Positions 1,361 to 53,471 of a stretch of DNA of 64,000 nucleotides are shown here, in pieces (position 1 is the stretch's first letter; each line of letters begins with the position of its first letter). The position numbers and the translations under genes were made by a program. The notes beneath the pieces are model-generated. The model searched no databases. It was not told where the DNA came from and was given only the letters and a program-made list of their open reading frames with translations. Origin of the DNA: Candidatus Latescibacterota bacterium (GTDB taxonomy: Bacteria; Latescibacterota; UBA2968; UBA8231); contig OZ242005.1 in the NCBI GenBank assembly GCA_965204725.1, forward strand, positions 160,001 to 224,000, written 5' to 3'.

Positions 1361-1361
1361 T

Positions 1362-11851: not shown

Positions 11852-11859
11852 TCGAGCCG

Positions 11860-12312: not shown

Positions 12313-12496
12313 TCCCCCCCTTTGTGCCCTTTGTGCATTTTGTGGCTCTTTATGCCTTTTCTGCCTATCTTTCGGCCTTTCCCGCACGTTCATAAAAGGA
12401 AACGCAACTTATGCTTGCGAAAATACCCTTTTTAAGCATTTTTGAATGACCTAAACAATGTCTCTATCTAATTTGCATTCCACAGGAGGTTGAACG

Positions 12497-15400: not shown

Positions 15401-15533
15401 GCGAGAACGGCGAGACCACCGCCATCCTCCTGACGGCAACGTTGACCGCTCCCGCCCCCAGTCCGAGACCATCCTGTTCACGATTGCCGCCCCCAGTTCC
15501 GGCACGCCCGCCGTGCGCGACGCCGATTACGCC
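12497..15533 (+). pseudogene. Secreted Calx-beta-like/He_PIG Ig-repeat surface protein, frameshifted three times and 3' truncated
   Basis: SD aggagg, signal peptide ..AGSATA; ORFs 12497-13264, 13047-13697 and 13699-15672 join by single-base changes at C5 13225, G10 13657, C5 15455; RDxDY repeats; LPAATGG..TYS..LPAGLVFD..TRTLSGTP; homology ends after AVRDADYA. Confidence 0.85.
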
Positions 15534-15637
15534 TCTCTCCAACAGAGGCCCCATTTTGCTTGCTAGTGGACGGTACGCAACGCATCGTTTCGGCTTACGA
15601 CCCGCCACCCGCCACCCGCCTGCCAAGGATCAAATCC

Positions 15638-17593: not shown

Positions 17594-17600
17594 CGCGGCC

Positions 17601-35968: not shown

Positions 35969-36901
35969 ATGGAAGCAATCAAAATGGAACCCAGTTCTCC
36001 CATTGAGGTCCCCAAGCCGCTCGCCGCCGCCCAAGTGCAGTCCTTTGTTGACGACGGCTACCTCGTCGTGCCGGGTCTGATGGACCAAGCCGAGCTCGCC
36101 GAGCTCAAACGCGATCTCCTCGCTGTGGCGCGTGGCCGCTACGAGTGCGACAACATCGAGCCGGTCGATCCCACCACGAGCGATCAAGCGGTGCTGGAAA
36201 GCATCCTCTGTATCCACCAGCCGCACTACGTCAGTCCAGTCATCGAAAAGTACGTCCGCCACCCCAAGATATGCGGCATCCTGAGCCAGATCACGGCCGC
36301 GCACCTGCCCTTTTGGGATGGCAGCGTCAAGTGCATGCAGTCCATGTACTTCGTCAAGCCGCCCAACTTTCAGGGGCAGGCTTGGCACCAAGACGAGATC
36401 TACATCCCCACCCGGGATCGCTCGCTTATTGGCGCGTGGATCGCCGTGGATGACGCCACCGTAGGAAACGGCTGCCTATACGTCATTCCGGGGTCGCACC
36501 GGCCCGGATACCTCTACCCGCAGCGGCCCCACGAAAACCCGGACGAGTTCGACTTTGCGCCGGAGAGCTACGGCTTTGACGAGCGCGTCGAGGTTCCGGT
36601 TGAAGTGCGCGCCGGGACCCTCGTATTCTTCAACGGCTATCTCCTCCACCGCTCGTACAAGAACCGAGGCTCGACCTATCGCCGCGTCTTGGTCAACCAC
36701 TACTGCAACGCTTGGAGCCTGTTGCCTTGGAGCCTTGAAGAGGGCGAGTCGCCCGCCCGCGCCGACCGGCGCACCATCGTACCCGTGGCCGGCATTGACC
36801 CCTATGCTTGGAAGGGCTATCAAACACCGGCCAAGTCCGTGGGGCTGCGGCACTGCAAGGCCATCGACGAAATCCGCGCCGACCGCACGGAGGACGCATG
36901 A
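35969..36901 (+). CDS. Phytanoyl-CoA dioxygenase (PhyH) family 2OG-Fe(II) oxygenase
   Basis: FVDDGYLVV, KPP..GQAWHQD, WIAVDDAT..NGCL..IPGSH, LLHRS..N. Confidence 0.92.
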   Translation: MEAIKMEPSSPIEVPKPLAAAQVQSFVDDGYLVVPGLMDQAELAELKRDLLAVARGRYECDNIEPVDPTTSDQAVLESILCIHQPHYVSPVIEKYVRHPKICGILSQITAAHLPFWDGSVKCMQSMYFVKPPNFQGQAWHQDEIYIPTRDRSLIGAWIAVDDATVGNGCLYVIPGSHRPGYLYPQRPHENPDEFDFAPESYGFDERVEVPVEVRAGTLVFFNGYLLHRSYKNRGSTYRRVLVNHYCNAWSLLPWSLEEGESPARADRRTIVPVAGIDPYAWKGYQTPAKSVGLRHCKAIDEIRADRTEDA

Positions 36902-36963
36902 AAGGCACCCCGGTCAAGCTGAAGGCTCTGAAATATGTCGGGTTGAAATCCGATTGAGCGCTG

Positions 36964-38994: not shown

Positions 38995-39142
38995 TGAGCG
39001 GACATCCCTTTACGCGGGTTGGTATCGCTATACATACAAAAGGATAATATGCCAGCGTCTAAGAGGCGCAAGTCCAAGCCGAAATCGACGCGGTGCTGGG
39101 CATCGGCTAACTAACGCGAGGCCAGACCTGTCCACCGCGGCC

Positions 39143-42100
39143 CTACCTGAGCAGCACCATCTTTTCGACCCGAGAGATCGAGCCGGCTTGCAGCCGGTAG
39201 AAGTATATCCCCGACGCCAAGGGCTGCCCGTGGTCGTCGCGCCCGTCGTAGTTGACGGCGTAGTGGCCCGCTGACTGATGCTCGGCCACGAGGGTGCGGA
39301 CCACCTGCCCCAAGGCGTTGTGAACGGTCAACTGCACTGCGGCGGCTTGCGGCAGTCCGTACTGAATCGTCGTGGTGGGGTTGAACGGGTTGGGGTAGTT
39401 GGGGCCGAGGGCAAACTTGCCGATGGAGCCGACGCGCCCTTCGGTGGCGGTCATGGCCGATTGCGCGACCGGCGCGGCTTGGCTCTTCAGGGCGGCGTCC
39501 TGCTCGGTAAACGCGAATGCTTCCGGCAGCAGCACGGCCACGTCTTGCGCGCCTTGCGGATTGAGCCGCACCTCTGAGGATACGGCTTTGGGCCGAGCGG
39601 CCCCATTGGTGCCGGAGGTGATCCTAAGGTACGTCCGCTGGCCGCCGCACTCGGCGGCTACCGCCCAGCGAGTAGCCCGATAATCCAGCGTCTGCACGAG
39701 GGCACTGCCCACTGAAACGCCCGGAACCGCATCCACCCTAGCCCACGGGATGAACTCGGCACGGGGTTCGGCCAGCGCGACCACTCGGCCGTGCTCGTCG
39801 GCACTGTGAGTCATCCACACCTCGCGGTAAATGCGGTACGCGTCCACAGCGGCGTGTTCACTCGGCAGCGCCCACGTCAGCAGGACCGAGCCGCGCCAAC
39901 CGCCAGCGAGATCGGCCCCGAGGTAGTCTTCAGCGCGCACCCATTCGGGAGCGTCCCGGGGGCATCCAACCCTACAACCCGAGCCGGGATCCCCTGCCAC
40001 CCTTAAACAGGCGCGCTGGCCGCCGCACTCAGCGGCTACGGCCCAGCGAGTGGCCCGATAATCCAGCGTCTTCACGAGGGCACTGCCCACCGAAACGCCC
40101 GGAACCGCATCGATCCTAGCCCACGGGACGAACTCGGCGCGGGGCTGGTCCAGCGCGACCACCCGGCCGTGTTCATCGGCGCTGTGGGTCATCCGCACCT
40201 CGCGGTAAATGCGGTACGCGTCCAAGAGGGCGTGATTCCTCGACAACGCCCACGTCAGCAGGACCGAGCCATCCCAACCGCCAGCGCGGTCCGCGCCGAG
40301 GTAGTTTTCAGCACGCATCCAATCGGGAGCATCCAAACCCATCTGGACCGTTATGCTAAATGGCAGGGTGGCCGCATCGCCATCGGCATCGGTGGCCGCG
40401 TAGATACTTGTATAAGCGATCATCCGGCCCTCGTCACCCAAGACTGCGGGGGAGCCTTTCAACTGGCGAGAGTTGGCGTTGAACACCAAGCCGTCCGGCA
40501 GGTTCCGCAGACTATACGTCAGCGGGCCGTTGCCGCCGGTGGCGGCTGGCAGGGGCCGAGCAACCGCTTGGCAAGCGGTCGCCGTCAGCGGCTCAATCGT
40601 TGCGTCGCCAAAGGTCGGCTCTAGATCCGAGGGGACGATGGTGATAGTACAGAGCAGCGTCGCCGCATCGCCATCGGCGTCGGTGGCCATGTACGTGGCG
40701 ACGGTCGTGTCGGTCGCCGTCGCCGCACCGCCCAACTGCCGCTTCACCGCGTTGAACACCAAGCCATCCGGCAGGTTCAAAAAGCTATACGTCAGCGGAT
40801 CGTTGCCGCCGATAGCCTGCGGCAGCGTCCGTGGGGCAATCGCTCGGTCCACCTCGGCGAACAGATCGGCAAGCGTTGCGTCACCAAAGGTCGGCACTAG
40901 ATCCGGGGAAATGATGGTGATGGGAAACGGCAGGGTGGCTACATCGCCATCGGCGTCAATGGCCGCGTAGGTAGCGACGGTCGTGTCGGTCGCCATCGCC
41001 GCGCCAACCAACTGCCGCTTCACCGCGTTGAACACCAAGCTGTCCGGCAGATCCCACAGGCTATACCGCAGCGGGGGATCGCCGCCGGTGGCCGACGGCA
41101 GGGGCCAAACAACCGCTTGGTCCACTTCGGCGAACAGAGCGGGAATGCTCGCGTCGCCAAAGGACGGTTTTAGATCCGGGGGCGTGACCGTGATGGTGAA
41201 CAGCAACGAGTCGGCATCATAGTTGGCATCGCGAACCCGATAAATCATGGTCTCGGCACTGTCGGTTTCGGTGGTGGGAGTGCCCCGCAACTGGCGGGTG
41301 TCGGCGTGGAACATCAAGCTGTCCGGCAGGTTGCCGAGCAAGCTATAGGTCAGCGGGGGGTCGCCGCCGGTGGCCTTAGGCAGCTTCCGCGGGGCAATCG
41401 GTTGATGGACCTCGGCGACGAGGTCGGCAATCATCGCGGTGTCCGCGAAAGCCGGGAACCGATCCTCAAAGGAGGACGGCGGGACTGAGGAGACTGGGGG
41501 GACTGAGGAGACTGGGGGAGACGCGGCGGGAGGACCGACCACGTCGTTGTCGATGAGGCCGACGGTCATCTCAAGGGTGCGGCCATCGTAGTCCGCACCA
41601 CTTGCGGTAAACCTGAATGTCGCACGCCGACGAGGCCCAGCGTTGTACTCCGTGTCTTCTACCCCGGAAAACGTCACGTTCTGCTTGGTCTTCCAGTTCG
41701 ATGGCGTAAAACTCAACGACGTTTTATCCATGGTCACCAGCGTCGGATCCTGATTGGTGGTGAGGTTTATCGTGACATTCCCCTTGGGTTCGCTCGTTAT
41801 CCACACTTTTTGAGTAACGGTGCCGCCCTCGCGGACGCTCAAAGACGAGTCAAAAACGCGGATGTCCACCTGTTCATTATTTGCCACAACGACTCGCACC
41901 GTGCCGCTGACATTGTTGTAGTCCCCGCCGCTCGCAGTATGGGTAATCGTCGTCCGCCGTCCGAACTCATCGGCTACATCGTCATCAACCGCTGTCGCGG
42001 TGACCGTCTGCGCTGTATTCCAGTTCATTGTGGTGAAGGTCAAGCTCGAAGCTGACACCGTCGCCACGGTCTGGTCGCTGCTCGCCACCGCCACGGTGAC

Positions 42101-43720
42101 CTGCGTGGTCGGCTCGGTAGCCAGCACCACGGTGTAGCTTTTCGTGCCCCCGGCCTCATCGGCTATGTGAATGTCGCTCGCCGAAAACGACAACGCCGGG
42201 CTTGGCGCGGCCTCATTGTCGATGAGGCCGACGGTCATCGTATGGGTAAGGCCGTCGTAGTCCGCACCGCTTGCAGTAAACTTGATGGTCGCCTGCCGAC
42301 TAGCCCCTTGGTTGTACTCCGTATCTTCCACCCCGGAAAATGTCACGTTCTGCTTGGTCTTCCAGTTCGATGACGTAAAACTCAACGACGTTTTATCCAT
42401 AGTCACCAGAGTCGGGTCCTGATTGGTGAGGTTTATCGTGACATTCCCCTTGGGTTGGCTCGTTATCCACACCTTTTGAGTAACGGTCCCGCCCTCACGG
42501 ACGCTCAAAGACGAGTCGCGAACCTGTATGGTCGTCTGTTCATTGCTTGCCACAGCGACTCGCACTATGCCGCTGACATTGTTGTAGTTCCCGCCGCTCG
42601 CAGTGTGGGTGATCGTCGTCCGCCGTCCGAACTCATCGGCTACATCGTCATCAACCGCTGTCACGGTGATCGTCTGCGCTGTGTTCCAGTTCATTGTGGT
42701 GAAAGTCAAGCTCGAAGTTGACACCGTCGCCACGGTCTGATCGCTGTTCGACACCGCCACGGTGACCTGCACGGTCGGCTCGGCAGCCAGCACCACGGTG
42801 TAGCTTTTCGTGCCCCCGGCCTCATCGGCTATGTGAATGTCGCTCGCCGAAAACGACAACGCCGGGCTTGGCGCGGCCTCATTGTCGATGAGGTCGACGG
42901 TCATCCTAAGAGTAAAGCCGTCGTAGTCCGCATCGCTTGCAGTAAGCTTGATGGTCGCACGCCGACGAGCCCCACCGTTGTACTGAGTGTCTTCTACCCC
43001 AGAAAACGTCACGTCCTGCTTGGTCTCCCAGTTCGATGGCGTAAAACGCAACGACGTTTTATCCATGGTCACCAGCGTCGAGTTCTGATTGGTGAGGGTT
43101 ATCGTGACAATCCCTTTAGGTTCGCTCGTGATCCACACCTTTTGAGTAACGGTGCCGCCCTCGCGGACGCTCAAAGACGAGTCGCGAACCTGTATGGTCG
43201 CTTGGTCATCGTCTTGCACAGTGACTCGCACCGTGCCGCTGACATTGTTATAGCCCCCGCCGCTCGCAGTGTGAGTGATCGTCGTCCGCCGTCCGAACTC
43301 ATCGTCTATGTCGTCATCAACCGCTGTCACGGTGACCGTCTGCGCTGCATTCCAGTTCATTGTGGTGAAAGTCAAGCTCGAAGGAGATACCGTCGCCACG
43401 GTCCGGTCACCACTCGACACCGCCACGCTGACCGGCCCGGTCGGCTGGGTAGCCAGCACCACAGTATAACTCGTCGTGCCGGCGGCCTCACTGGCTATGT
43501 GAACGTTGCTCGCCGAAAACGTCAACGCCGGCGTGGTCTGCGCGTAGAGGGGGGCCGCGACGACGAGCGCGTACGCCAGACCGACAAACGCGCTGCCCAT
43601 TCGCCGACGCACGAGGAGATGTCTGCTACACCTTCGCAAGGGAGCCACAAACCGCACAAGGCCGGCGCTGCGGGGGCGCGTCAGACGACGGCTGCTTCCT
43701 ACAAAGGCTTTACTGACCAT
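39143..43720 (-). CDS. Large secreted Ig-repeat protein (3x Calx-beta-like pairs, 4x He_PIG-like, duplicated unknown domain, FlgD-Ig/T9SS-like CTD)
   Basis: LTFT..NWN.AQTVTVTAVDD repeats; LP.ATGGD.PL.YSL..LPDGL.F repeats; NYPNPFNPTTTI..NALGQVVRTL..SGIYFYRL. Confidence 0.9.
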   Translation of the reverse strand: MVSKAFVGSSRRLTRPRSAGLVRFVAPLRRCSRHLLVRRRMGSAFVGLAYALVVAAPLYAQTTPALTFSASNVHIASEAAGTTSYTVVLATQPTGPVSVAVSSGDRTVATVSPSSLTFTTMNWNAAQTVTVTAVDDDIDDEFGRRTTITHTASGGGYNNVSGTVRVTVQDDDQATIQVRDSSLSVREGGTVTQKVWITSEPKGIVTITLTNQNSTLVTMDKTSLRFTPSNWETKQDVTFSGVEDTQYNGGARRRATIKLTASDADYDGFTLRMTVDLIDNEAAPSPALSFSASDIHIADEAGGTKSYTVVLAAEPTVQVTVAVSNSDQTVATVSTSSLTFTTMNWNTAQTITVTAVDDDVADEFGRRTTITHTASGGNYNNVSGIVRVAVASNEQTTIQVRDSSLSVREGGTVTQKVWITSQPKGNVTINLTNQDPTLVTMDKTSLSFTSSNWKTKQNVTFSGVEDTEYNQGASRQATIKFTASGADYDGLTHTMTVGLIDNEAAPSPALSFSASDIHIADEAGGTKSYTVVLATEPTTQVTVAVASSDQTVATVSASSLTFTTMNWNTAQTVTATAVDDDVADEFGRRTTITHTASGGDYNNVSGTVRVVVANNEQVDIRVFDSSLSVREGGTVTQKVWITSEPKGNVTINLTTNQDPTLVTMDKTSLSFTPSNWKTKQNVTFSGVEDTEYNAGPRRRATFRFTASGADYDGRTLEMTVGLIDNDVVGPPAASPPVSSVPPVSSVPPSSFEDRFPAFADTAMIADLVAEVHQPIAPRKLPKATGGDPPLTYSLLGNLPDSLMFHADTRQLRGTPTTETDSAETMIYRVRDANYDADSLLFTITVTPPDLKPSFGDASIPALFAEVDQAVVWPLPSATGGDPPLRYSLWDLPDSLVFNAVKRQLVGAAMATDTTVATYAAIDADGDVATLPFPITIISPDLVPTFGDATLADLFAEVDRAIAPRTLPQAIGGNDPLTYSFLNLPDGLVFNAVKRQLGGAATATDTTVATYMATDADGDAATLLCTITIVPSDLEPTFGDATIEPLTATACQAVARPLPAATGGNGPLTYSLRNLPDGLVFNANSRQLKGSPAVLGDEGRMIAYTSIYAATDADGDAATLPFSITVQMGLDAPDWMRAENYLGADRAGGWDGSVLLTWALSRNHALLDAYRIYREVRMTHSADEHGRVVALDQPRAEFVPWARIDAVPGVSVGSALVKTLDYRATRWAVAAECGGQRACLRVAGDPGSGCRVGCPRDAPEWVRAEDYLGADLAGGWRGSVLLTWALPSEHAAVDAYRIYREVWMTHSADEHGRVVALAEPRAEFIPWARVDAVPGVSVGSALVQTLDYRATRWAVAAECGGQRTYLRITSGTNGAARPKAVSSEVRLNPQGAQDVAVLLPEAFAFTEQDAALKSQAAPVAQSAMTATEGRVGSIGKFALGPNYPNPFNPTTTIQYGLPQAAAVQLTVHNALGQVVRTLVAEHQSAGHYAVNYDGRDDHGQPLASGIYFYRLQAGSISRVEKMVLLR
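41545..43532 (-). repeat. Three tandem 666-bp intragenic repeats
   Basis: caacgccgg anchors end at 43531, 42865, 42199 (period 666). Confidence 0.92.
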
Positions 43721-43745
43721 ATAGCAATCCTACATCATTGCAAGA

Positions 43746-43800
43746 CTGGATTCCCCCCCCGTGTCGGGGCACGGGGGGAACGTTCTTGCGCGGGAAGGAC
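43746..43800. repeat. Composite REP with nested hairpin
   Basis: ctggattccc-ccccgtgtcggggcacgggg-..gcgggaaggac. Confidence 0.85.
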
Positions 43801-43840
43801 AGCTTAAACGGGTTCGGATAGAACGATATTACGCGGTGCC

Positions 43841-44095
43841 CTACTCGGCTCGGTCTAACAGGAGCCTAAAGGCGTCAAGGCTCGGCACCTGTATAGCCTC
43901 CCGATGCAACTGCTTGAGGCGCTGCACATCGTCGGTGGCCTCAATGCGAGCGGCCAACGGATCCGACGCAGCCAGCCCAAAGCGAATCTCTAGCACCTCA
44001 AGCAGAGCTTCAATGGTGCGTTCTCGGCCGCCCTGCTTAATCCCCTGCTCAATGCCCTTTTCCGTGAAATACTGCGCTACCGACGACTCGTACAT
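43841..44095 (-). CDS. Putative intragenic Rpn-S small protein (84 aa)
   Basis: In-frame ATG (MYESS) preceded by GAGGAGG at 5 nt spacing, just before GIEQG repeats. Confidence 0.65.
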   Translation of the reverse strand: MYESSVAQYFTEKGIEQGIKQGGRERTIEALLEVLEIRFGLAASDPLAARIEATDDVQRLKQLHREAIQVPSLDAFRLLLDRAE

Positions 44096-44728
44096 AGTTT
44101 CCTCCTCGATGATGGTCATAATCGTCTCTAAGTTATACACCAACCCACTTAACATCGCAAGATCGGCCATATAATTGGCCTTGCGGCTCTCGTCCATCGG
44201 CACCTGTTGCGCCCGGTTGACGCACTGGCGTAGCCATCCTTCGGCGTCCATCCCCTCAGGCGGCTGCATCAGTGGCGCAAACGGCAGCAAGCCCGAAGGC
44301 CCCGCGGCGAGGATGCGTTGGCCATCTATCTCGATCAGCCGAATGACCTTGTATTGGACTAAGACGCGGTAGCCGCGCCGCTCTTGGACGTAGTAGCCCG
44401 GATCGTTTCGGCCGGCGTCTGGACGGAGATAGATGACGTTGGAATAGATCGGCCGGCGGTGTTGCTCAATGCCGCGTCCGATATAGCCGGCCATGCGGAG
44501 CGGCATAGGGGGGTTGCTGTCGGTGGTTTGGAACTCGTGATGGACCAACGCCTTCTGATCGCCAATTTTGACGCGGATGAGGCTGTCGGTGCGGTGGGTT
44601 TCGACGGTGGTTTGCTCGGTATCGACGACGCCGAGGATTTGGATGTCGTCTTGCTGGAGGGCGAAGCGGGCGAAGTCTGCCGGGTAGGTGTGGATGAGGT
44701 GTTTGGCGATGGTGTCGAATTCGGCCAT
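43841..44728 (-). CDS. Rpn family recombination-promoting nuclease-like (PD-(D/E)XK) protein
   Basis: FD..AK.L, RTDSL..HHEFQT..MPLRMAGY, LLPFAPLM, C-terminal EKGIEQGIKQG..LEVLEIRFG. Confidence 0.88.
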   Translation of the reverse strand: MAEFDTIAKHLIHTYPADFARFALQQDDIQILGVVDTEQTTVETHRTDSLIRVKIGDQKALVHHEFQTTDSNPPMPLRMAGYIGRGIEQHRRPIYSNVIYLRPDAGRNDPGYYVQERRGYRVLVQYKVIRLIEIDGQRILAAGPSGLLPFAPLMQPPEGMDAEGWLRQCVNRAQQVPMDESRKANYMADLAMLSGLVYNLETIMTIIEEETMYESSVAQYFTEKGIEQGIKQGGRERTIEALLEVLEIRFGLAASDPLAARIEATDDVQRLKQLHREAIQVPSLDAFRLLLDRAE

Positions 44729-44774
44729 GGGTTTTGCCTTGGTTGCGGGTGGGGTGGGCTGGTATGTGCAACCG

Positions 44775-44789
44775 GCAAGAATCGTGCCA
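44775..44789 (-). promoter_or_regulatory. Putative sigma54 -24/-12 promoter upstream of rpn
   Basis: TGGCAC-GATTC-TTGC, 46 nt before ATG. Confidence 0.55.
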
Positions 44790-44904
44790 CGGCGGCGGCT
44801 CATAGGGGAGGGCTGGGGATCGGCGGCGTGGGTGTGTAGCGAAAAGGGGACAGGCGTGGGGCGTTGGGGAGAAAGTTTGACTGGCTTCCCGCATGACCCA
44901 AAGT

Positions 44905-44922
44905 GGGTTCTCAGACAGCCTC
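44905..44922. mobile_element. Solo IS5/IS1031-like terminal inverted repeat
   Basis: gggttctcagacagcctc, 16/18 to MITE end at 1343-1360, followed by TTA (stop of aldolase gene). Confidence 0.6.
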
Positions 44923-46074
44923 TTACATTTTTCTAACCTCGTCAAAGAACGTCTTAAAGGAGCCCGTGGCGGCGTGATCCCAACGGTCAAAGGTCGCTTG
45001 CAGCACGGCTAGCCAACGCTCTTTGGGCAGGCTTTGCACCGCTAAGCAGACGTAATAGGCATCGGTCAACGCCAAGCCGCGTCGCCCCTCCACGAGGGCT
45101 TGCTCTATGCGCTCGACCCATGGCGTCACCTCGGGCAAGGCTTCGACGCACCGCGCCTTGTGCTGGACAAAGTTGGCCAAGTGTTTGACCAAGCTCCGGC
45201 TGACGTCGTGCCGCTTTGCCGTGCCGGATACGTCGTTGAGGTCCAACTCGCCCCGGTGATACAATGCCAACAACTGCTGAGTGAGCGTGCGTTGCTGAGC
45301 ACTAACGGTTGCTTGCCGAGCGCGGCGCAAGCCACTGGTGAGGGCTGACATCTCGTGGCAGCAGTTGAGCCAGCGCACCCCTTTGGAGACCACCGAGCGC
45401 ATGGACGCGCCCGGGCCGACAGCCGTGCCCATGGCCTTGCCGCTGGCCGCACACGCCGCCCCCACGCGGCTGAAGGCCTCCTGCACGCGCTCGTGGTCTA
45501 TGTGGGGGACGCCGGCGCGCTCGACGCCGTAGCTGTGCGCCAAGTCGCTCGGCCCCACGAAGAGCAAGTCGATTCCTTCAACCGCGGCAATCGCTTCCAC
45601 CGCCTCCACGCCCTCGGCGTCTTCGATCATCACGCCGAGCAAGGTCTCGGCATCGGCCCTTCCCATGTACTCGGCCGAATCGAGCGTCCCGTAGTCCGAA
45701 TCCCGGCCGCAGCCTACGCCGCGCAAGCCCAGCGGCCGGAACTTGGCCATCCGCACGAAGGCGCGTGCTTCGTCGGCACTCTTGCAATGGGGCCAAACCA
45801 ACCCCTCGGCCCCTAACTCCAGCGGCTTGATCACTTGGTTGTACGGTCCCTTGGGGATGCGAACCACGGAATTGACCCCGGTGGCTCGCGCCGCCAAAAT
45901 CAGCGGCGAAAGCGCGTTTAGCTCTAGATGGGAATGCTCCATGTCGATCCAGACGCAGCCAAAACCCGCTTGGGCGGCCAGCTCGACTACGACCGGGTCG
46001 AAGATCCGGTTGATTTCGACGACCTCTACCGTCGCCCCTCCGAGCAGGGCGGCCTTAGTCTGATTGGTTTTCAC
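44923..46074 (-). CDS. HpcH/HpaI aldolase family protein with ~125-aa C-terminal extension
   Basis: VWIDMEH, VVRIP, KFRPLGLRG, MIEDAEGV, LFVGPSDL; SD ggagg + GTG. Confidence 0.9.
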   Translation of the reverse strand: MKTNQTKAALLGGATVEVVEINRIFDPVVVELAAQAGFGCVWIDMEHSHLELNALSPLILAARATGVNSVVRIPKGPYNQVIKPLELGAEGLVWPHCKSADEARAFVRMAKFRPLGLRGVGCGRDSDYGTLDSAEYMGRADAETLLGVMIEDAEGVEAVEAIAAVEGIDLLFVGPSDLAHSYGVERAGVPHIDHERVQEAFSRVGAACAASGKAMGTAVGPGASMRSVVSKGVRWLNCCHEMSALTSGLRRARQATVSAQQRTLTQQLLALYHRGELDLNDVSGTAKRHDVSRSLVKHLANFVQHKARCVEALPEVTPWVERIEQALVEGRRGLALTDAYYVCLAVQSLPKERWLAVLQATFDRWDHAATGSFKTFFDEVRKM

Positions 46075-46173: not shown

Positions 46174-46905
46174 ATGGCAGCAAGTGGACCCGTTCCCGCC
46201 GCCCGCGCCCAAGGCCGTGGCCCCACCATCTGGCTGGCCGGATCGCCCGACGAGCTAAAGGAGTGGATGCCCCTCGGAATCGCCGGAATCGTCACCAACA
46301 CGGTGGTGCTCAACCAATACGCCCAGCAATGCGGCTCGGTCATCGGCCTGATAGAGCAATACCTCGCGCTCACCGACAAGCCCGTGGTGGTGGAAATCGA
46401 CGGGCACTGCGTTGAAGAGCTTTTGGAAGTCGGGGAAGTTTTCACCAACTTGTCCGATCAGATCATCCTCAAGATACCCTGCAACGTCAACGGACTCAAA
46501 GCATTCAGCATCCTCAAGGACCGCGGGGTCGAGACCTTCTGTACCACGGTGTTCTCCCTGACGCAAGCCGCGGCCGTCGCCCAAGCCGGGGTCAATCACA
46601 TCTTGCCGTTCTGCGAGCCTGTTAAGGAAGTGGGCGGCGACCCGACCAAGCTGATCCGCGAGTGCGCCCAAATGTTCGGCGGCTGGGGCCAGCGGCCCTT
46701 CATTATGGCCGCCCTCATCCGCTCGGTGGAGACCGCGCACGCCGCCTTCCGCGACGGGGCCGACGAGCTGGTCACCATGTGGACGGTGTACCGCGACATG
46801 ATGGACCACCCGCTAACCGCCCAGTGGAACAAGACCTTTATGGACGAGTGGATCGACATGCACCAGAGCGGCTTGTTGGAGGGCGTCCCCGTCCGCTCCC
46901 ACTGA
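46174..46905 (+). CDS. Transaldolase/fructose-6-phosphate aldolase family, divergent
   Basis: GIVTN, IILKIP (Schiff-base Lys), TTVFSLTQA, IMAALIRS, MDHPLT. Confidence 0.85.
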   Translation: MAASGPVPAARAQGRGPTIWLAGSPDELKEWMPLGIAGIVTNTVVLNQYAQQCGSVIGLIEQYLALTDKPVVVEIDGHCVEELLEVGEVFTNLSDQIILKIPCNVNGLKAFSILKDRGVETFCTTVFSLTQAAAVAQAGVNHILPFCEPVKEVGGDPTKLIRECAQMFGGWGQRPFIMAALIRSVETAHAAFRDGADELVTMWTVYRDMMDHPLTAQWNKTFMDEWIDMHQSGLLEGVPVRSH

Positions 46906-46912
46906 CGCGACG

Positions 46913-46961
46913 CGCCCTCACCCGCGCTCGGCCGGGATCTGGCGCAGCAATTCGCTCCAAG
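46913..46961 (+). repeat. 49-bp direct repeat, left copy (duplicate of hpcH-like gene 3' end)
   Basis: 48/49 identical to 49434-49482. Confidence 0.95.
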
Positions 46962-46991
46962 GGGAACTCAACATCAACCAAGGAGTTCGTC

Positions 46992-49403
46992 ATGTTCAGT
47001 CAAGCCTTTGTAGGAATCAGTCGTCGGTCTGGCGTTCGCGCTCGTCAGTCGTCGGTCTGGCGTTCGCGCTCGTCAGTCGTCGGTCTGGCGTTCGCGCTCG
47101 TCGTCGCGGGAACCTTCGGGCCGTATCCGCTCTACGCGCAGGATGGTGGTACGCCCCCACCGCCGGACTTGTCGTTGTCGACAAGCATTATCGAAATATC
47201 TGAGGGCGACACGGGGACCTACGCCGTGGTCCCCGTTGGTCAGACGACCGGGATTGTCACCGTGATGGTGTCAACTGGCGACCCTAATGTAGCGACGGTA
47301 TCGCCTTCGATATTGGTCTTCAGCCCACCGACGTACAGTGAAACGTCGGTAACGGTGAGAGCGATTGATAACGATATAGTCAATCCGCCCCGGAGTACGA
47401 CGATCACCCACACTGCGACTGGCTACCCCTCCCGCACATTGGTCGTCCGCGTGACAGACGATGAGGCGAGCATATCTGAACCTTATGTCCCGGAGAATCT
47501 GCTGCCGGCTTTCGCGGACACCGCGATGATTGCCGACCTCGTCGCCGAGGTCCGCCAACCGATTGCCCCGCGGAGACTGCCTAAGGCCACTGGCGGCGAC
47601 CCCCCGCTGACCTATAGCTTGCTCGGCAACCTGCCAGATGGCTTGATGTTCCACGCCGCCACCCGCCAGTTGCGGGGCACTCCCACCACCGAAACCGACA
47701 GCGCCGAGACCATGATTTACAGGGTCCGCGATGCCAACTATGATGCCGATACTCTGATGTTTGCCATCACGGTCACGCCCCCGGATCTAAAACCGTCCTT
47801 TGGCGACGCGAACATTCCCGCTCTGTTCGCCGAAGTGAACCAAGCGGTTGTTTGGCCCCTGCCGGCGGCCACCGGCGGCGATCCCCCGCTGCGGTATAGC
47901 CTGTCCAACCTGCCGGACGGCTTGGCACTCAACCCGGTGTGGCAACAGTTGCAGGGTGCGGCGACAGCCACGGACACGACCATCGCCGCCTATACAGCTA
48001 CGGATGTCGATGGCGATACAGCGACGTTGACGTTTGCCGTCACCATCATCAACCCAGACCTAACGCCGACCTTTGGCGACGCGAGGGTGGCCGATCTCGT
48101 CGTCGAGGTGGACCAAGCGATTGATCCGGTGGACCTGCCGGCCGCTGGCGGCGGCAACGGTCCGCTGCGATATAGCCTGTCGAACCTGCCAGACGGCTGG
48201 GCGTTCCATGCCGCCACCCGCCAGTTGCGCGGCGCAGCGACAGCCCCCGACACGATCACCGCCACCTACACGGCCACCGACGCCGACGGCGATGCGGCCA
48301 CCCTGACGTTTACCATCGTCATCATCGCCCCGGATCTAACGCCCGCCTTTGGCGACGCGACGCTTGGGCTGCTGACGGCGACCGCTTGCCAAGCGATTGA
48401 TTGGACGCTGCCGGCCGCCAGTGGCGGCAACGACCCGCTGACGTATAGTCTGTCAAACCTGCCGGACGGCCTTGTGTTCCACGCCGACACCCGCCGGTTG
48501 CAGGGCATTCCCACAGCCCTGAGCGACGAGGGCCAGACGATCACCATACAGGGAACCTACACGGCGCAAGATGCCGACGGCGATGCAGCCACCCTGCCCT
48601 TCACTCTAACGGTCTATACTGGATTGGATGCTCCCGATTGGGTGCGAGCCGAAAACTACCTCGGGGCCGATAGCACGGGTACTTGGGGCGGCTCGGTGCT
48701 GCTGACGTGGGCTTTGCCGAGTCAGCATGCCGGCGTGGACGCTTACCGCATTTACCGCGAGGTGCGGATAACGCACAGCACCGACGAGCACGGTCAGTTG
48801 GTCGCGCTGGACGAACCCCGCGACGAGTTCGTCCCGTGGGCTCGGGTGGATGCGGTGCCGGGCGTTTCGGTGGGGCGCGCCCTCGTGCGGACGCTGGATT
48901 ATCAGGCGACCCGCTGGGCGGTAGCTGCCGAGTGCGGCGGCCAGCGCACCTCCTTGACGGTCGCCCAAGCCAAAGCAGTGCCCCGCGACAGGGCCGCGCT
49001 GCTGCCGCAAGCCTTCGTCTTTGCCCAGCAGGGCGCGGCTCCGCCGCCGAAACGCCAAGCGGTCGTGCAATCGGCCATGACCACCACCGAAGGGCGCGTC
49101 GGGGCCATCCACCCCAGCACCCCGGCCGCATTGGCCCTCGGCCCCAACTATCCCAACCCGTTCAACCCGGCCACGACGATTCAATACTGGCTGCCGCAAG
49201 CTGCCGAGGTGCAGTTGACCATTCACAATGCCTTAGGGCAGGTGGTCCGCACCCTCGTGGCCGAGCATCAGTTCGCGGGTCGCTACGCCGTCAACTACGA
49301 CGGGCGCGACGACCACGGGCAGCCCTTGGCGGCGGGGCTATACTTCTACCGGCTGCAAGCCGGCCCGGTTTCTCAGGTCGGGAAGATGGTCCTGCTCAAG
49401 TAG
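46992..49403 (+). CDS. Secreted Ig-repeat protein (1 Calx-beta-like, 4 He_PIG-like, FlgD-Ig/T9SS-like CTD), paralog of 39143-43720
   Basis: SD aaggag + ATG 46992; near-identical PAFADTAMIADL.. block; NYPNPFNPATTI CTD. Confidence 0.9.
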   Translation: MFSQAFVGISRRSGVRARQSSVWRSRSSVVGLAFALVVAGTFGPYPLYAQDGGTPPPPDLSLSTSIIEISEGDTGTYAVVPVGQTTGIVTVMVSTGDPNVATVSPSILVFSPPTYSETSVTVRAIDNDIVNPPRSTTITHTATGYPSRTLVVRVTDDEASISEPYVPENLLPAFADTAMIADLVAEVRQPIAPRRLPKATGGDPPLTYSLLGNLPDGLMFHAATRQLRGTPTTETDSAETMIYRVRDANYDADTLMFAITVTPPDLKPSFGDANIPALFAEVNQAVVWPLPAATGGDPPLRYSLSNLPDGLALNPVWQQLQGAATATDTTIAAYTATDVDGDTATLTFAVTIINPDLTPTFGDARVADLVVEVDQAIDPVDLPAAGGGNGPLRYSLSNLPDGWAFHAATRQLRGAATAPDTITATYTATDADGDAATLTFTIVIIAPDLTPAFGDATLGLLTATACQAIDWTLPAASGGNDPLTYSLSNLPDGLVFHADTRRLQGIPTALSDEGQTITIQGTYTAQDADGDAATLPFTLTVYTGLDAPDWVRAENYLGADSTGTWGGSVLLTWALPSQHAGVDAYRIYREVRITHSTDEHGQLVALDEPRDEFVPWARVDAVPGVSVGRALVRTLDYQATRWAVAAECGGQRTSLTVAQAKAVPRDRAALLPQAFVFAQQGAAPPPKRQAVVQSAMTTTEGRVGAIHPSTPAALALGPNYPNPFNPATTIQYWLPQAAEVQLTIHNALGQVVRTLVAEHQFAGRYAVNYDGRDDHGQPLAAGLYFYRLQAGPVSQVGKMVLLK
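47017..47102 (+). repeat. Three perfect 28-bp tandem repeats within signal peptide coding region
   Basis: tcagtcgtcggtctggcgttcgcgctcg at 47017, 47045, 47073. Confidence 0.95.
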
Positions 49404-49433
49404 GACCAAGGTGCTTATGGACGAGTTGCTTGC

Positions 49434-49482
49434 CGCCCTCACCCGCGCTCGGTCGGGATCTGGCGCAGCAATTCGCTCCAAG
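49434..49482 (+). repeat. 49-bp direct repeat, right copy
   Basis: Covers stop and last 13-14 codons of 49439-50224. Confidence 0.95.
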
Positions 49483-50224
49483 CCGCGCCCAAGTCCATCA
49501 CGTCGCCGCCGCAGATTACCAAGTCGCAGCCCGCGTCCATGGCGGCCGTCAGCAGCGACCCCGGCAAGGTGAAGATGCCGCTCAGCTTGCCGACCGCCCG
49601 CGCTTTGGCCACGCACGAGAGCACGGCCTCGCGCAGCCCGGGATCGTCCATCTGGCCGGTGCAGCCCATGCTGACGGCCAAATCGCTCGGCCCCATGAAA
49701 ATCCCAGAGAGGCCCTCCACTGCGAGTATTGCATCGACATTCTTCACGGCCTCCACAGTCTCAATCTGGACCAAGAGATGGGTGCGCGCATTGGCGCGGG
49801 CTAGGGCGTCTTGGAGGTTTTCCATGCCAAAGCCCATGCCGCGCGTCCGCACGTTGAAGCCGCGCCGCCCCAACGGCGGGTACTTGCCGGCCTCGACGAT
49901 GCGGCGTGCGTACTCCGCATCGTCCACCATGGGGACGAGAATGATCCGCGCCCCGATTTCGAGTGCGCGCAGCACGTGGTGGCGCTCGCCGTCGGGCAGG
50001 CGGATGAGCGGGAAAATGCCGCCGGCCTCTGCGGCCAAGCACAAGGTCTCGGCGCGCTCAAAGCCGACCGGGCCGTGTTCGCTTTCGATCCACACCGCTT
50101 CAAAACCGACCTGCGCCGCCAGCGAGACGAGCAAGGGCGAGGCGCTGTTGACGGTGACGCCGCGAATTCGGCGCGGCCGCCCAGCCTGATCCAAGAATAC
50201 ATCGTCGGTGATTTTTAAGGCCAT
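49439..50224 (-). CDS. HpcH/HpaI aldolase family protein
   Basis: VWIESEHG, ILVPMV, KYPPLGRRG, VQIET, IFMGPSDL. Confidence 0.92.
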   Translation of the reverse strand: MALKITDDVFLDQAGRPRRIRGVTVNSASPLLVSLAAQVGFEAVWIESEHGPVGFERAETLCLAAEAGGIFPLIRLPDGERHHVLRALEIGARIILVPMVDDAEYARRIVEAGKYPPLGRRGFNVRTRGMGFGMENLQDALARANARTHLLVQIETVEAVKNVDAILAVEGLSGIFMGPSDLAVSMGCTGQMDDPGLREAVLSCVAKARAVGKLSGIFTLPGSLLTAAMDAGCDLVICGGDVMDLGAAWSELLRQIPTERG

Positions 50225-50248
50225 GAACGTTTCTCTCGTTTGAATGAT

Positions 50249-50285
50249 AAAAAAACCCCGTGCCGGGGAAGTTGGCACGGGGGTT
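50249..50285 (-). terminator. Rho-independent terminator after low-GC gene pair
   Basis: Minus strand ccccgtgcc-aacttcccc-ggcacgggg followed by T7. Confidence 0.7.
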
Positions 50286-50303
50286 GCCTGGGGGTGGGTT
50301 CAG

Positions 50304-50582
50304 CTATTGGTTGAGCGATTTTATGATTACATGAACTACAATCGTGCCAATTAAGGTTGCAGCGATGGAAATAGCAGTATATAGGAGTTGCTTCGTTGTA
50401 ATCATGCTGGCTTTGATTTCTGTTACGGTCGTTTTTATTTCATCTACTGTTGCTTCAAGATTGGAAATTCTCTCTTCTAGTTTATCTAGCCTGTAATCTC
50501 TTACGCGATTTCCATTTCCATTATACCCACGAGCGTTTTCTTGATTTGGGTCTTGCCGAAAATCAGGTTTAATAGTACTCAT
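50304..50582 (-). CDS. Hypothetical protein, coiled coil + C-terminal TM helix (low GC)
   Basis: RLDKLEERISNLEATVDEIK..; LLYTAISIAATLIGTIVVHVII; overlaps upstream stop. Confidence 0.7.
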   Translation of the reverse strand: MSTIKPDFRQDPNQENARGYNGNGNRVRDYRLDKLEERISNLEATVDEIKTTVTEIKASMITTKQLLYTAISIAATLIGTIVVHVIIKSLNQ

Positions 50583-50853
50583 CGTGTTTCTCCACCCACT
50601 TAAACCAATCCCATAGAGCGCGTGCAGTAAAACCCGCGTATGAACCTTCTAATTTTAGAACGACGCCAGGAGCTATAGATTCCTCTCCTTTAATTCCCAG
50701 TCTCCTCGCTATGGTTTCAGGAATATCGTCGTCTTGAATAAAGAATATAGTCTCCGAAAATTCATAGTGTTTTGAATACCACTGATCGATTAGATTTCGG
50801 AATTGCGGATCGGCTGAATCATTTAATAAAACAACAAAGGTTGACGTCGCCAT
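50569..50853 (-). CDS. Hypothetical small alpha/beta protein (low GC)
   Basis: 94-aa ORF, TFVVLL..YAGFTARALWDWF; SD-like aaaggg. Confidence 0.7.
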   Translation of the reverse strand: MATSTFVVLLNDSADPQFRNLIDQWYSKHYEFSETIFFIQDDDIPETIARRLGIKGEESIAPGVVLKLEGSYAGFTARALWDWFKWVEKHDEYY

Positions 50854-50907
50854 TACTCGGACCCTTTCTCGGCGAGGCTTGTACCCCTACTTAGTGGGGC
50901 TTCACTA

Positions 50908-50937
50908 ATTAAATAACGTACCCTGAACAATTGTCAA
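50908..50937 (-). promoter_or_regulatory. Putative sigma70 promoter of low-GC pair
   Basis: Minus strand TTGACA-16/18-TATTTA/TTTAAT. Confidence 0.45.
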
Positions 50938-50974
50938 GTTTTCGTGCTTTGCCCACTTCAGAGGAGGTGCTGTT

Positions 50975-51679
50975 GTGACACCACTAGATTACGGACGCTC
51001 GTTTGTACTGGGCAACGGCCCGGAAAACGAAGTGCGGTTTTGGGTCGAGTCGCGGACGCGCATCGTCAGCGAAGCCTCCGGCCAGAGCGAGGATTACGTG
51101 CAGGTGGGGTCGTGCAAGAGCGAGCACACCTTTGCCCGAGAAAACCTCCTGCACGAGGACAACTACGACTTTCTGCCGGTCTTTGGCCCGGAGTGGTCGG
51201 TCGTCTATCGGCGTCACGCCGACCTGCGCGACAGCTATCGAGAAATCCGCCGCTCACAGGAGTGGTGGAATGGGCAACAATACCGCCTGATCGTCGGGCG
51301 CGAGGTGGAGGAACTGACCAGCGCGGCGGCCGTGCGCGAAGCGACCTACGCTGCCGTGCCAATCGTCGCGCAAACCCACGTGCGGAACGAGGAAACCGGG
51401 TTGCAGGCGATCCTAGAGTACCCGGTCAAAACCATGAACACCAATCGCGCCAACGACCTCTATCAAGTGGATACCGGCCCGGTGGCCTTCCCCGACCTGA
51501 GCCAGCGTCGCGCCCGCCACGTCGAGGCCCTATCCCTCGCCTTTGTGGTTTTCAATGCCCCGCACTTTGCCGACTTCGTCCTCGAAGCACCGACTCGCGT
51601 AGGCGACGAGCAGGTGTATCACTATTCCAAGCTAGTGTCCCTATCGGCGGTAAACAGGCTCTATGCGGTGCGCGCTTAG
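50975..51679 (+). CDS. Hypothetical protein
   Basis: SD gaggagg + GTG; host-like codon usage; CKSEHTF..NYDF, EYPVKTMN..YQVDTGP. Confidence 0.75.
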   Translation: MTPLDYGRSFVLGNGPENEVRFWVESRTRIVSEASGQSEDYVQVGSCKSEHTFARENLLHEDNYDFLPVFGPEWSVVYRRHADLRDSYREIRRSQEWWNGQQYRLIVGREVEELTSAAAVREATYAAVPIVAQTHVRNEETGLQAILEYPVKTMNTNRANDLYQVDTGPVAFPDLSQRRARHVEALSLAFVVFNAPHFADFVLEAPTRVGDEQVYHYSKLVSLSAVNRLYAVRA

Positions 51680-51736: not shown

Positions 51737-52738
51737 ATGTACAGAGTAGGAGTTATTGGCTGCCGGGGCATTGGCAAGCGGCACGCCCAAGGGGCCGCGC
51801 AACTGGAAAACGCCGAGGTCGTGGCCGCTTGCGATCTCGTGCCGGAGCAACGCGACGAATTTGCCGCGCAGTTTAAGGAGACTAGTCCCGCGCTGAAGAT
51901 GTACGCCGACTATCGGGAGATGCTGGAAAAGGCCCAGCTCGACATCGTTACGGTGGCCACCGGCGACAACCGGCACGCCGACTTGGTGGTAGCCGCGGCC
52001 GAAGCCGGTGCCAAGGGGATTTTCTGCGAAAAGCCACTGGCGACCAGCGTGGAGGACGCGGACCGCATGGTGACGGCCGCAGAACGCCACAACGCCTTGC
52101 TGTCCGTCGATCACACTCGCCACTGGATGCCCGTCTGGCATCGCTGCCACGAACTGGTGACGGCCGGCGAGATTGGCGACGTGAGAGCGGTCTTGTGCGA
52201 ACACTACGGCACGCGCTCAATGCTGTTCCGCAACGGCACCCACCTGCTCGACGCCATTTTCTGGTTCGCCGGTAGCAAACCAGAGTGGCTCGTCGCCGAG
52301 TTGGAGGACGGGTACGAAGACTACAGCGAGTATCGCGGCGACGGCGGACACGACCCAGCCACCGAGCCGAGTGCCAACGCTTACATCCATTTTGCCAACG
52401 GCGTACGCGGGGTCTATCTCGGAGAAAAACAAACTCCCAACCGACTCGACTTCACTGTGGTCGGCACTACGGGTGCCATTTTCATCGAGCGGGAAGGCGA
52501 TGCGTACCTCGAGCGGGGCGGAGAGCGAGTGTTGGTTGAACCGCGCCCGTGGGAGGTGGATGGAATCGAAGCGGGCGTCCATGAACTCGTGCGCGCACTC
52601 GACGGCACCGGTGCGCTATCGTGTACTGGCCGCGATGGTCTGATCGTTGTGGAGATGATGATCGCCTGCCTGCAATCGCAGCAGCAGAACAACTCAAAAG
52701 TCGCGCTGCCGCTACCCCGCGTACGCGGAGGCAGTTGA
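51737..52738 (+). CDS. Gfo/Idh/MocA oxidoreductase
   Basis: VGVIGC.GIG..H, IFCEKPLA, NGTHLLD. Confidence 0.92.
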   Translation: MYRVGVIGCRGIGKRHAQGAAQLENAEVVAACDLVPEQRDEFAAQFKETSPALKMYADYREMLEKAQLDIVTVATGDNRHADLVVAAAEAGAKGIFCEKPLATSVEDADRMVTAAERHNALLSVDHTRHWMPVWHRCHELVTAGEIGDVRAVLCEHYGTRSMLFRNGTHLLDAIFWFAGSKPEWLVAELEDGYEDYSEYRGDGGHDPATEPSANAYIHFANGVRGVYLGEKQTPNRLDFTVVGTTGAIFIEREGDAYLERGGERVLVEPRPWEVDGIEAGVHELVRALDGTGALSCTGRDGLIVVEMMIACLQSQQQNNSKVALPLPRVRGGS

Positions 52739-52757
52739 GTAGGTGGGGCGACCTATT

Positions 52758-53471
52758 TCAGCAACAGCCCTTCACCTCTCGGTTGGAAGAGGCTTGACAG
52801 CGCATGAACTCGTAGAACAGTGCCCCGGCTGCCGCCCCTAGCACCGGACCGACGACGTAGGCCGCAAAAGCCGTCCATTCGCCGGCTGCCAGCGCGGGGC
52901 CTAAGCTGCGGGCTGGATTCATCGAGGCTCCGCACAACGGCCCGGCGAATAGGGCCTCTAGCCCCACCGTGCCGCCAATGGCCAAACCAGCCGCCGGCCC
53001 TACGGCGCGAAAATCGGTCGCCATGCTCATAATGACCAGCATCAGCAAAAAGGTCAGCATGAATTCCCACACTAGGGCCGTGGTGAACAGGCCATCTACC
53101 GGCCGGGTGACTCCCAAGTTCAGCACCTGTTGAGGTTGCGTGGCGGCCAGCACCGACGACAAACTCGCCACGTGTATGCCGCTGGCCGCCACGGCCCCGG
53201 CGCATTGGGCCGAGATATAGGGCGCGATCTCCCTTGTGGGAAAATGCCGCGTCAGGGCGAACGCGAGGGTCACCGCCGGGTTGAAATGCGCTCCAGAAAT
53301 GTGGCCGGTGGCATAGATCATCACCATGACGACCAGCCCAAACGCAGCGGCAATGCCGACATGGCTGACCGCGCCGCCGGAAATCTGGTCGATGGCCACC
53401 GCGCCGCAACCGGCAAAGACAATGGCAAACGCGCCGATGAATTCGGCGGCGCATTTTCGCAATAGATTCAT
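52758..53471 (-). CDS. MIP family channel (aquaporin/NIP-like)
   Basis: AEFIGAF, GHISGAHFNPAVT, GASMNPARSLGP; C-terminal GCC. Confidence 0.95.
   Translation of the reverse strand: MNLLRKCAAEFIGAFAIVFAGCGAVAIDQISGGAVSHVGIAAAFGLVVMVMIYATGHISGAHFNPAVTLAFALTRHFPTREIAPYISAQCAGAVAASGIHVASLSSVLAATQPQQVLNLGVTRPVDGLFTTALVWEFMLTFLLMLVIMSMATDFRAVGPAAGLAIGGTVGLEALFAGPLCGASMNPARSLGPALAAGEWTAFAAYVVGPVLGAAAGALFYEFMRCQASSNREVKGCC

Follow-up and report, generated by a model that had tools for sequence, protein, structure and literature searches.

Between two convergent aldolase-family genes in a 64,000-nt stretch of Candidatus Latescibacterota DNA (contig OZ242005.1, positions 160,001 to 224,000; hereafter the window), a single gene predicted to encode a surface protein of 803 aa is bracketed by two copies of a 49-nt sequence that repeats the 3' end of one of its neighbours. 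The locus is a genuine insertion polymorphism, most of the related loci carrying the same two neighbours tail to tail with no gene between them. With a probability of about 0.5, we favour the reading that one gene was inserted here and that the 49-nt repeat is a by-product of illegitimate recombination, not the attachment (att) site of a dedicated mobile element. The structure as a whole looks like an indel polymorphism with a recombination scar in a variable region of surface-protein genes. An earlier interpretation, made from the letters of the window alone (the sequence-only reading), had recognised the repeat and taken the insert for a recent, att-like cassette; its anatomy stood up to analysis, and its views on the age of the insert and the nature of the repeat found no support.

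Anatomy of the insert and its empty site

The two copies of the repeat agree at 48 of 49 positions (C/T at position 20) and are the only two matches to it in the window at three or fewer mismatches, at least two such matches being reached in 0 of 100 shuffles. The left copy starts 7 nt past the TGA (46903-46905) of a gene of the transaldolase/fructose-6-phosphate aldolase (TAL/FSA) family, and the right copy is made up of the 5 nt past the stop, the stop codon itself (49439-49441) and the last 41 coding nt of a convergent HpcH/HpaI-family aldolase gene. This confirms the proposed 49-bp duplication of a neighbouring gene's 3' end, bracketing 2,472 nt that are divided into a 30-nt leader, one open reading frame (ORF) and a 30-nt tail (Table 1). 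The proposed content of the insert, a Shine-Dalgarno sequence, one gene and a 30-bp tail only, was also borne out: nine other ORFs overlapping it (at least 80 aa, on either strand) matched no Pfam family. Two candidate origins of the tail were rejected. As a copy of other sequence, it has a 12-mer match in the 3' region of the TAL-family gene (46838-49) with a score of 24; an unrelated position scored just as high, and 24 is also the 99.9th percentile for chunks of the window. As an inverted repeat end it scored 17. Neither value is above background.

Related loci were obtained by scanning genome contigs with the aldolase protein, which gave 37 loci, mostly labelled as Latescibacterota metagenome-assembled genomes, and the state of each was read by tblastn of the three proteins together with the junction sequences. 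In 27 of the 37 the aldolase-family genes lie tail to tail, with 2-81 nt between the last aligned codons. The adhesin gene stands between both genes in a single one, L002, seven loci (L029-L035) have no adjacent TAL-family gene, and two (L036, L037) end inside the aldolase gene. The window's two flanks overlap by exactly the 49 nt in L001 (10767-10815) and L006, and these 49 nt are single-copy at the empty sites. The empty junction of L006, ...CTTGGAGCG...GGGTGAGGGCG-CGTCGCGG-TCA, is, but for an additional G, the left copy and spacer of the window; the same junction can be given as ...CTTGGAGCG...GCGCGGGTGAGGGCG-CGTCGCGG-TCA. The spacer shared by the empty sites of L001 and L006, CCGCGACG, is one nucleotide longer than the window's CGCGACG. 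Removal of the insert and one repeat, which had been said to restore a compact tail-to-tail gene pair, thus produces the very junction that relatives possess, and empty-site relatives, whose absence would have spoken against an insertion, are plentiful.

Among the remaining loci, the more distant L030 carries another type IX secretion cargo gene (11288-13792, minus strand) convergent behind its aldolase gene, which is 71% identical to the window's. This cargo gene encodes a WD40 beta-propeller protein with a sorting domain 52.7% identical to that of the adhesin over 93 aa. The sole TAL-family match in L031 is partial and lies ~9.6 kb downstream.

Features of mobile elements were sought in and around the insert. 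Among 39 ORFs across the window (nine of them without any Pfam family) and the nine ORFs overlapping the insert, none matched a recombinase, integrase or transposase family, in agreement with the lack of an integrase stated in the sequence-only reading. Terminal inverted repeats, sought by comparing the first 60 nt of the insert with the reverse complement of its last 60, were no better than in shuffles (1,304/2,000), and the same applies to dyad symmetry within the repeat (1,446/2,000). The searches returned no tRNA gene, no Rfam family and, by megablast, no similarity to plasmid or phage records. No attC site with an IntI platform was recognised, there being no IntI in the window and no Rfam match. 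Apart from aldolase ends, no second copy of the repeat or of the untranslated part of the leader exists in the window or the 37 loci. The tail and the right repeat together form a predicted fold with z = -2.1 (9 of 200 shuffles as good); as a conserved hairpin it was rejected, the same pairing not being predicted in L002 (z = 0.0). The end repeats themselves are near-identical (48/49) and single-copy in the 27 empty sites, as would suit an att-flanked unit, but the same end repeats are not present in the other integrated copy: L002, the sole one available, lacks the left repeat and has different junctions. The sequence-only reading had suggested that other copies of the cassette be inspected for different flanking duplications, and L002 shows none. 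The att-like character of the insert is therefore not upheld, as the junctions of L002 also differ outside the leader and stop, the repeat is without dyad symmetry and the insert without terminal inverted repeats, and the duplications beside further inserts at this site are not 49 nt long (see below). Taken at the level of sequence, no feature appears to mark the insert as an att-type mobile cassette.

Age of the gene and origin of the repeat

The arrival of the gene can be placed on a nucleotide tree of the TAL-family and aldolase genes (28 rows, with the repeat columns removed and L028 and L031 left out for a gene coverage below 90%). The window and L002 are sisters with a support of 99/98, and all 22 other ingroup rows and four outgroup rows of the rooted tree are empty. 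As the two filled genomes form one clade and the rest are empty, one gain is most parsimonious. The inserted genes of the window and L002 also form a clade apart from three paralogs (98/98, five-row tree), and over a 50-nt stretch, made up of leader nt 6-30 and the gene's opening 25 nt, they agree at 48 of 50 positions. Since an orthologous gene occupies the same site in the sister L002, its arrival is, by this phylogenetic placement, older than the split of the two lineages, and the insertion is not recent, contrary to what had been claimed.

The repeat tells a different story. In L002 neither the left repeat copy nor the 7-nt ancestral spacer is present; its TAL-family stop is followed by 32 unrelated nt and then by the shared leader, and its tail, of 10 nt, gave no alignment by eye with the 30 nt of the window. 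Six flanking genes compared between the two genomes have a synonymous divergence (dS) of 0.157-0.268 and a nonsynonymous divergence (dN) of 0.024-0.054, and the inserted cassette has a dS of 0.39 and a dN of 0.17 (two rows, 'orf 52753-53454' and 'adhesin C-part', were dropped as out of frame or badly aligned). The cassette is therefore fast-evolving, with its dN of 0.17 compared to 0.02-0.05 in the neighbours. The left repeat copy is identical to the aldolase end of L006 at 49 of 49 positions, to the right copy at 48 of 49 and to the aldolase end of L002 at 44 of 47. Relative to 23 relatives, the window's aldolase end has one derived change, which turns the Ala of IPAERG into the Thr of IPTERG. 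In the comparison, which covered 44 nt, the only difference between the left and the right copy is the derived base of the coding copy, the left copy keeping the base of the relatives. At the mean flank dS of 0.211, a neutrally evolving 49-nt copy as old as the split from L002 should have gathered about 5.2 changes; the probability of no change is 0.006, or 0.02 at the lowest dS. Given some five expected changes and a single difference between the copies, the duplication, or at least its last homogenisation, looks younger than the arrival of the gene.

The gene has kin nearby. Judged by blastn, the inserted gene is a paralog of a 1,525-aa gene on the opposite strand, 3.2 kb away, to which it is 82.6% identical over 1,474 nt and 78% over 845 nt. 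The paralog has the same He_PIG repeats and sorting domain, and the first 21 nt of the inserted gene recur at its start. On the explanation we favour, the gene would have been copied from the local adhesin gene family into the ~12-nt spacer of the convergent aldolase-family genes, before the window lineage split from L002, its nearest sequenced relative. The most likely later step is that a filled allele of this locus recombined with an empty one, ordinary homology within one of the flanking genes presumably anchoring the exchange at one end. At the opposite end the join would have been made out of register, with the end of the aldolase's last 14 codons (...GCTCCAAG) connected to sequence just upstream of the leader, which in L002 reads ...GGCCCAAG. 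The motif CCAAG both ends the repeat and precedes the leader in L002, so that these five shared nt may have been the point of contact. Such an out-of-register join would give the order spacer, repeat, leader, gene, tail, repeat. Recombination or slippage between the 48/49 repeats could plausibly delete the gene again and recreate the empty site exactly.

The stop codon of the aldolase gene marks an indel hotspot, which has received other DNA in relatives of the window. A 31-nt hairpin insert lies directly behind it in L010, L011, L014 and L027 (~10810-10865; 9603-9656 in L010), surrounded by repeats of the aldolase end that measure 21 nt in L010, L011 and L027; in L014, 14 nt were detected. 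L007, L008, L012 and L016 (~10800-10880) carry a palindromic insert instead, whose repeats measure 26 nt in L008 and 9 nt in L012 (those of L007 and L016 by eye only). This palindrome, TAGGGGCGAsCG..CGsTCGCCCCTA followed by CAATTCGG, supplies a new TAG stop in L007 and L016 that shortens the aldolase by two residues. Its recurrence elsewhere in L007, at 17736, identifies it at sequence level as a multi-copy element like a repetitive extragenic palindromic (REP) sequence. In all three kinds of insert, the adhesin gene included, the duplicated block ends 2-5 nt past the same aldolase stop and its other end varies. The two small inserts are unrelated to each other, and no end motif is common to the inserts.

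Ectopic copies of short coding pieces also occur at two other places of rearrangement in this lineage. L002 contains a 59-nt copy (54/59 identical) of an internal gene piece, at 7735-7792 and 8828-8886, the latter corresponding to window 51380-51436. Its source is the gene orthologous to window 50975-51679, and 19 other sequences have this piece only once. In L002 the ectopic copy coincides with a rearrangement specific to that genome, with 2.4 kb of extra DNA and an oxidoreductase gene (window 51737-52738) missing. The window itself has a 38-nt repeat (10950-10987 and 15715-15752; 36/38 identical, 4,765 nt apart), of which the first copy starts 2 nt past the stop of the gene 9691-10947(+) and the second falls within the convergent DUF6785 gene 15638-17593(-), at a distance of 77-114 nt from its stop, the stop codon not being included. 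Between them are ORFs without family match and another He_PIG gene (13699-15672), an arrangement whose geometry, read from the sequence, resembles that of the adhesin insert.

A bolder view of these observations makes the last codons and stop of the aldolase gene a reusable docking point, on which, in different lineages, three unrelated pieces of DNA landed 2-5 nt past the stop, each re-copying the last 21-49 nt of the gene. It would imply an undescribed insertion process in Latescibacterota, driven in trans or by replication at convergent gene ends, and we regard it as quite improbable. If true, it would mean recombinase-free gene cassettes that are lost and regained through long flanking repeats.

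Several points weigh against illegitimate recombination between alleles as the origin of the repeat. The end of one and the same gene has been re-copied by three independent inserts, a pattern that might be systematic in origin instead of accidental. The CCAAG join consists of 5 nt, and the alignment of the L002 spacer with that of the window was equalled by 1,228 of 2,000 shuffles; for the L002 spacer and the sequence upstream of the paralog, 225 of 2,000 shuffles were as good. No imported tract is visible in the mismatch profiles of the TAL-family and aldolase genes, where L002 is closest over both genes as wholes and no run of bins favours another relative, so that the donor would have to be very close kin; a donor nearly identical in sequence would leave no trace. 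The dating assumes a neutral left copy, the contrast of 1/49 with 3-4/47 is small, and gene conversion between the copies could equally keep them alike. On both sides, the sequences outside the leader and stop differ between the window and L002, as expected if one cassette had been inserted on two occasions, and equally so if the junctions were remodelled later. Finally, both repeat copies are known from the assembly alone.

A first rival explanation dates the duplication to the moment when the gene entered the site, in the common ancestor of the window and L002: template switching or staggered-break repair would have re-copied the last 49 nt of the aldolase gene, after which L002 lost the left copy and spacer by local replacement and the window's copies stayed alike by gene conversion or chance. 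The single, most parsimonious gain (one change; 99/98) suits this course of events, as do a right junction within 2-3 nt of the same place in both genomes, a spacer that is indel-prone among relatives (gaps of 2-81 nt) and the small inserts of the same geometry, which arose independently here as template switching predicts. Yet it demands an extra replacement event in L002, whose 32 nt are not recognisable as decayed spacer and repeat in the shuffle test already given, and a neutral copy expected to hold about five changes shows none relative to the inferred lineage state (P of ~0.006-0.02), and we therefore consider it possible but unlikely. The model of the sequence-only reading, an att-flanked integrative unit without a recombinase of its own, would interpret the repeat as attL and attR: a circular form with the aldolase 3' end would have integrated, either site-specifically in trans or by a Campbell-type single crossover, and could excise and re-insert. 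A direct repeat that exactly brackets the insert, is single-copy in empty sites and restores the end of the target gene, as is the case for integrative elements in gene 3' ends, is in its favour; a near-perfect repeat beside an old, diverged cassette would fit recent re-integration, and two further inserts, each with a duplication, have gone into this stop-codon region. It is opposed by the lack of a recombinase in the insert and the 64-kb window, of dyad symmetry or core-type structure in the repeat, of terminal inverted repeats in the insert and of any further copy of repeat or leader in the window or the 37 loci, and also by the variable duplications of the other inserts (9-26 nt, no shared end motif). 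With the sole other copy of the cassette, in L002, being without the repeat and having different junctions, the model appears distinctly unlikely.

If the filled state were ancestral to the whole clade, the 27 empty sites would be the result of repeated deletions through the repeat. Deletion between the copies does give exactly the observed empty junction, and the WD40-propeller cargo gene of L030 stands convergent behind the aldolase gene in a similar way, but that gene has only the sorting domain in common with the adhesin, the outgroup spacers hold an ordinary terminator-like hairpin and no gene remnant, and one gain is preferred to at least two losses on the rooted tree; such a history is very improbable. 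An assembly artefact that joined reads of filled and empty strains has to be considered as well, given that the window is most likely a metagenome assembly, like its relatives, and that both alleles would exist in nature under the explanation we favour. However, the adjacency of repeat end and leader exists in neither an L002-like filled allele nor the empty allele and could not have come from a graph path or an overlap, one base distinguishes the two copies, and the gene, with its internal 28-nt triplication, recurs at 98% identity in another record. An artefact of this kind is very unlikely.

The inserted gene, its neighbours and their surroundings

The 803-aa protein has a signal-peptide-like N-terminus, four cadherin-like Ig repeats of the He_PIG type and a C-terminal type IX secretion sorting domain. 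He_PIG (PF05345) scored 80.8 bits in four stretches (cut-off 24), in agreement with a periodicity of 273-276 nt in the DNA of the gene, and the PDB matches of these repeats are chains of the SraP adhesin (4m00, 4m02 and 4m03; best 4m03_A, E = 7e-9). In the C-terminal region, FlgD_ig reached 46.7 bits and TIGR04183 Por_Secre_tail (type A sorting domain) 28.8 bits over residues 720-800 (cut-off 23), whereas Pfam Por_Secre_tail, at 22.4 bits, fell short of its cut-off of 27. Pfam gave no family for the 110-residue domain at the N-terminus. The name adhesin is thus a reasonable one to infer from the domain content. The protein database yielded 321 relatives at E <= 1e-10 among 7,999 candidates scored, the nearest being P0004 (98%, 803 aa, from another record), P0021 (88%) and P0005 (86%); the predictions for P0005 and P0010 are shortened at the N-terminus.

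The signal-peptide region contains a 28-nt unit in tandem repetition (Tandem Repeats Finder score 173, 98% matches), where it is translated in all three frames (ISRRSGVRAR / QSSVWRSRS / SVVGLAFALV). Its three copies (84 nt) preserve the reading frame. One copy more or fewer would shift it, so the repeat could serve as a slipped-strand on/off switch. The N-terminus of P0004 is the same as in the window, triplication included, and the triplication is absent from P0021, P0017, P0011, P0015 and L002. A leader similar to that of the inserted gene lies upstream of a paralog in L004.

In the 86-nt gap from the TAL-family stop to the start of the gene, a scan limited to sigma-70-type promoters found no promoter-like site, and there was neither a terminator-like site nor a stable fold (z = -0.57). 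These results make plausible the earlier claim of a promoterless gene expressed by read-through; most likely, transcription would enter from the upstream TAL-family gene and translation would use the gene's own ribosome-binding site.

Table 1 Features of the inserted locus and its paralog in the window.
Feature	Position	Strand	Basis
Left neighbour, TAL/FSA (transaldolase/fructose-6-phosphate aldolase) family gene, 243 aa	46174..46905	+	Pfam TAL_FSA
Ancestral 7-nt spacer CGCGACG of the convergent gene pair	46906..46912	.	matches empty-site spacers of L001 and L006
Left 49-nt repeat copy, non-coding, duplicating the aldolase gene 3' end	46913..46961	.	repeat comparison
30-nt leader of the inserted gene, Shine-Dalgarno AAGGAG at 46980-46985	46962..46991	+	sequence reading
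Inserted gene, 803-aa predicted surface protein	46992..49403	+	Pfam, NCBIfam and PDB matches
28-nt unit x3.2 in the signal-peptide region	47017..47106	+	Tandem Repeats Finder
30-nt tail from the gene stop to the right repeat copy	49404..49433	+	sequence reading
Right copy of the 49-nt repeat, functional aldolase gene 3' end	49434..49482	.	repeat comparison
Right neighbour, HpcH/HpaI-family aldolase gene, longest ORF 279 aa, likely start ATG at 50224	49439..50278	-	
1,525-aa paralog of the inserted gene	39143..43720	-	blastn, Pfam

Both neighbours recur among the related loci. The TAL/FSA-family gene (Pfam TAL_FSA, 60 bits; NCBIfam TIGR00875, 97.6 bits, below cut-off) has an identity of 84-96% in 28 loci, and the aldolase gene (Pfam HpcH_HpaI, 104 bits) one of 71-94% in the Latescibacterota- or Gemmatimonadota-labelled loci L001-L031, L036 and L037. 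Upstream of the aldolase gene, at 50200-51000, lies a stretch of low guanine-plus-cytosine content (0.40-0.43 compared to ~0.62 around it) with two small minus-strand ORFs (50304-50582 and 50569-50853) that have no family match. The stretch is common to L002, and L001 has ~2.7 kb instead.

The paralog is part of a variable 8-kb island (36887-44931) that is absent from L001 and L006 and only partly common to L002 and L004, and no direct repeats were found flanking it. Besides the paralog, which contains 666-nt internal repeats, the island carries a Schlafen/AlbA_2-type ATPase gene (36964-38994) and a 320-aa ORF without family match. Further along the window, at 15638-19586, are two tandem DUF6785/DUF6784 membrane-protein genes, 1,963 nt apart, with 82-93% DNA identity. 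Short multi-copy repeats common to these genomes were seen in the window (1359-1414, 11897-11931 and 12278-12312), in L002 (7029-7084), in L001 (14010-14099) and in L003 (12804-12926 and 15366-15491). One shared element is a 56-nt palindromic repeat that is 98% identical between the window and L002, and another, of 35-61 nt, contains ...CTGAGCG(A/T)AGCG....

Implications and comparison with known systems

This one locus shows how an uncultured lineage may vary its set of secreted surface proteins, a family gene apparently having been copied into the tight gap between two housekeeping-type genes, where it now stands between repeats that could remove it cleanly. For annotation, the case advises that a long flanking duplication without an integrase should not be read as a new mobile element before other copies have been examined. 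The recurring duplication-flanked inserts at one stop codon are in addition a small, testable lead on recombination in these genomes.

A literature search for a structure of this kind, covering titles and the openings of abstracts, returned nothing of the sort. Comparison was made with known classes of elements. Insertion sequences, miniature inverted-repeat transposable elements and casposons produce target-site duplications of 2-15 nt. Like these, the DNA inserted here is flanked by a direct target duplication, but this duplication is 49 nt long, those at the same site range over 9-49 nt, and neither terminal inverted repeats nor a transposase accompany it. Integron gene cassettes are similar in being promoterless single-ORF units with their own ribosome-binding site, here apparently driven from upstream. 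They differ in lacking any flanking duplicate of coding sequence from the host, and no attC-like imperfect palindrome accompanies the present insert (the tail fold is marginal, z ~ -2, and is not predicted in L002), nor does an IntI. Some integrative elements, such as prophages in protein-coding or tRNA genes, insert in the 3' end of a gene and carry a replacement end. With these and with Campbell-type insertion-duplication the locus shares a repeat over the last codons and stop, an intact target and single-copy empty sites, whereas it has no integrase or excisionase in the insert or window, a cargo of a single gene, a sister without the repeat and no symmetry of a recombinase site.

With respect to its product, the gene resembles type IX secretion cargo with cadherin-like or He_PIG repeats of the SraP module type, having a sorting domain above cut-off, four He_PIG repeats and matches to SraP chains. 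It is distinguished by an N-terminal 110-residue domain without family match, and its role as an adhesin would follow from the domains.

Homology-facilitated and microhomology-mediated illegitimate recombination, including short-patch events, occurs in naturally transformable bacteria. Classic cases usually delete recipient DNA, while here 49 nt are duplicated, and the microhomology in the present case is only 5 nt long and not statistically supported. The likeness lies in one-gene DNA that is joined without an enzyme of its own element, in a proposed junction at a few shared bases and in short duplicated coding patches at the junctions of rearrangements.

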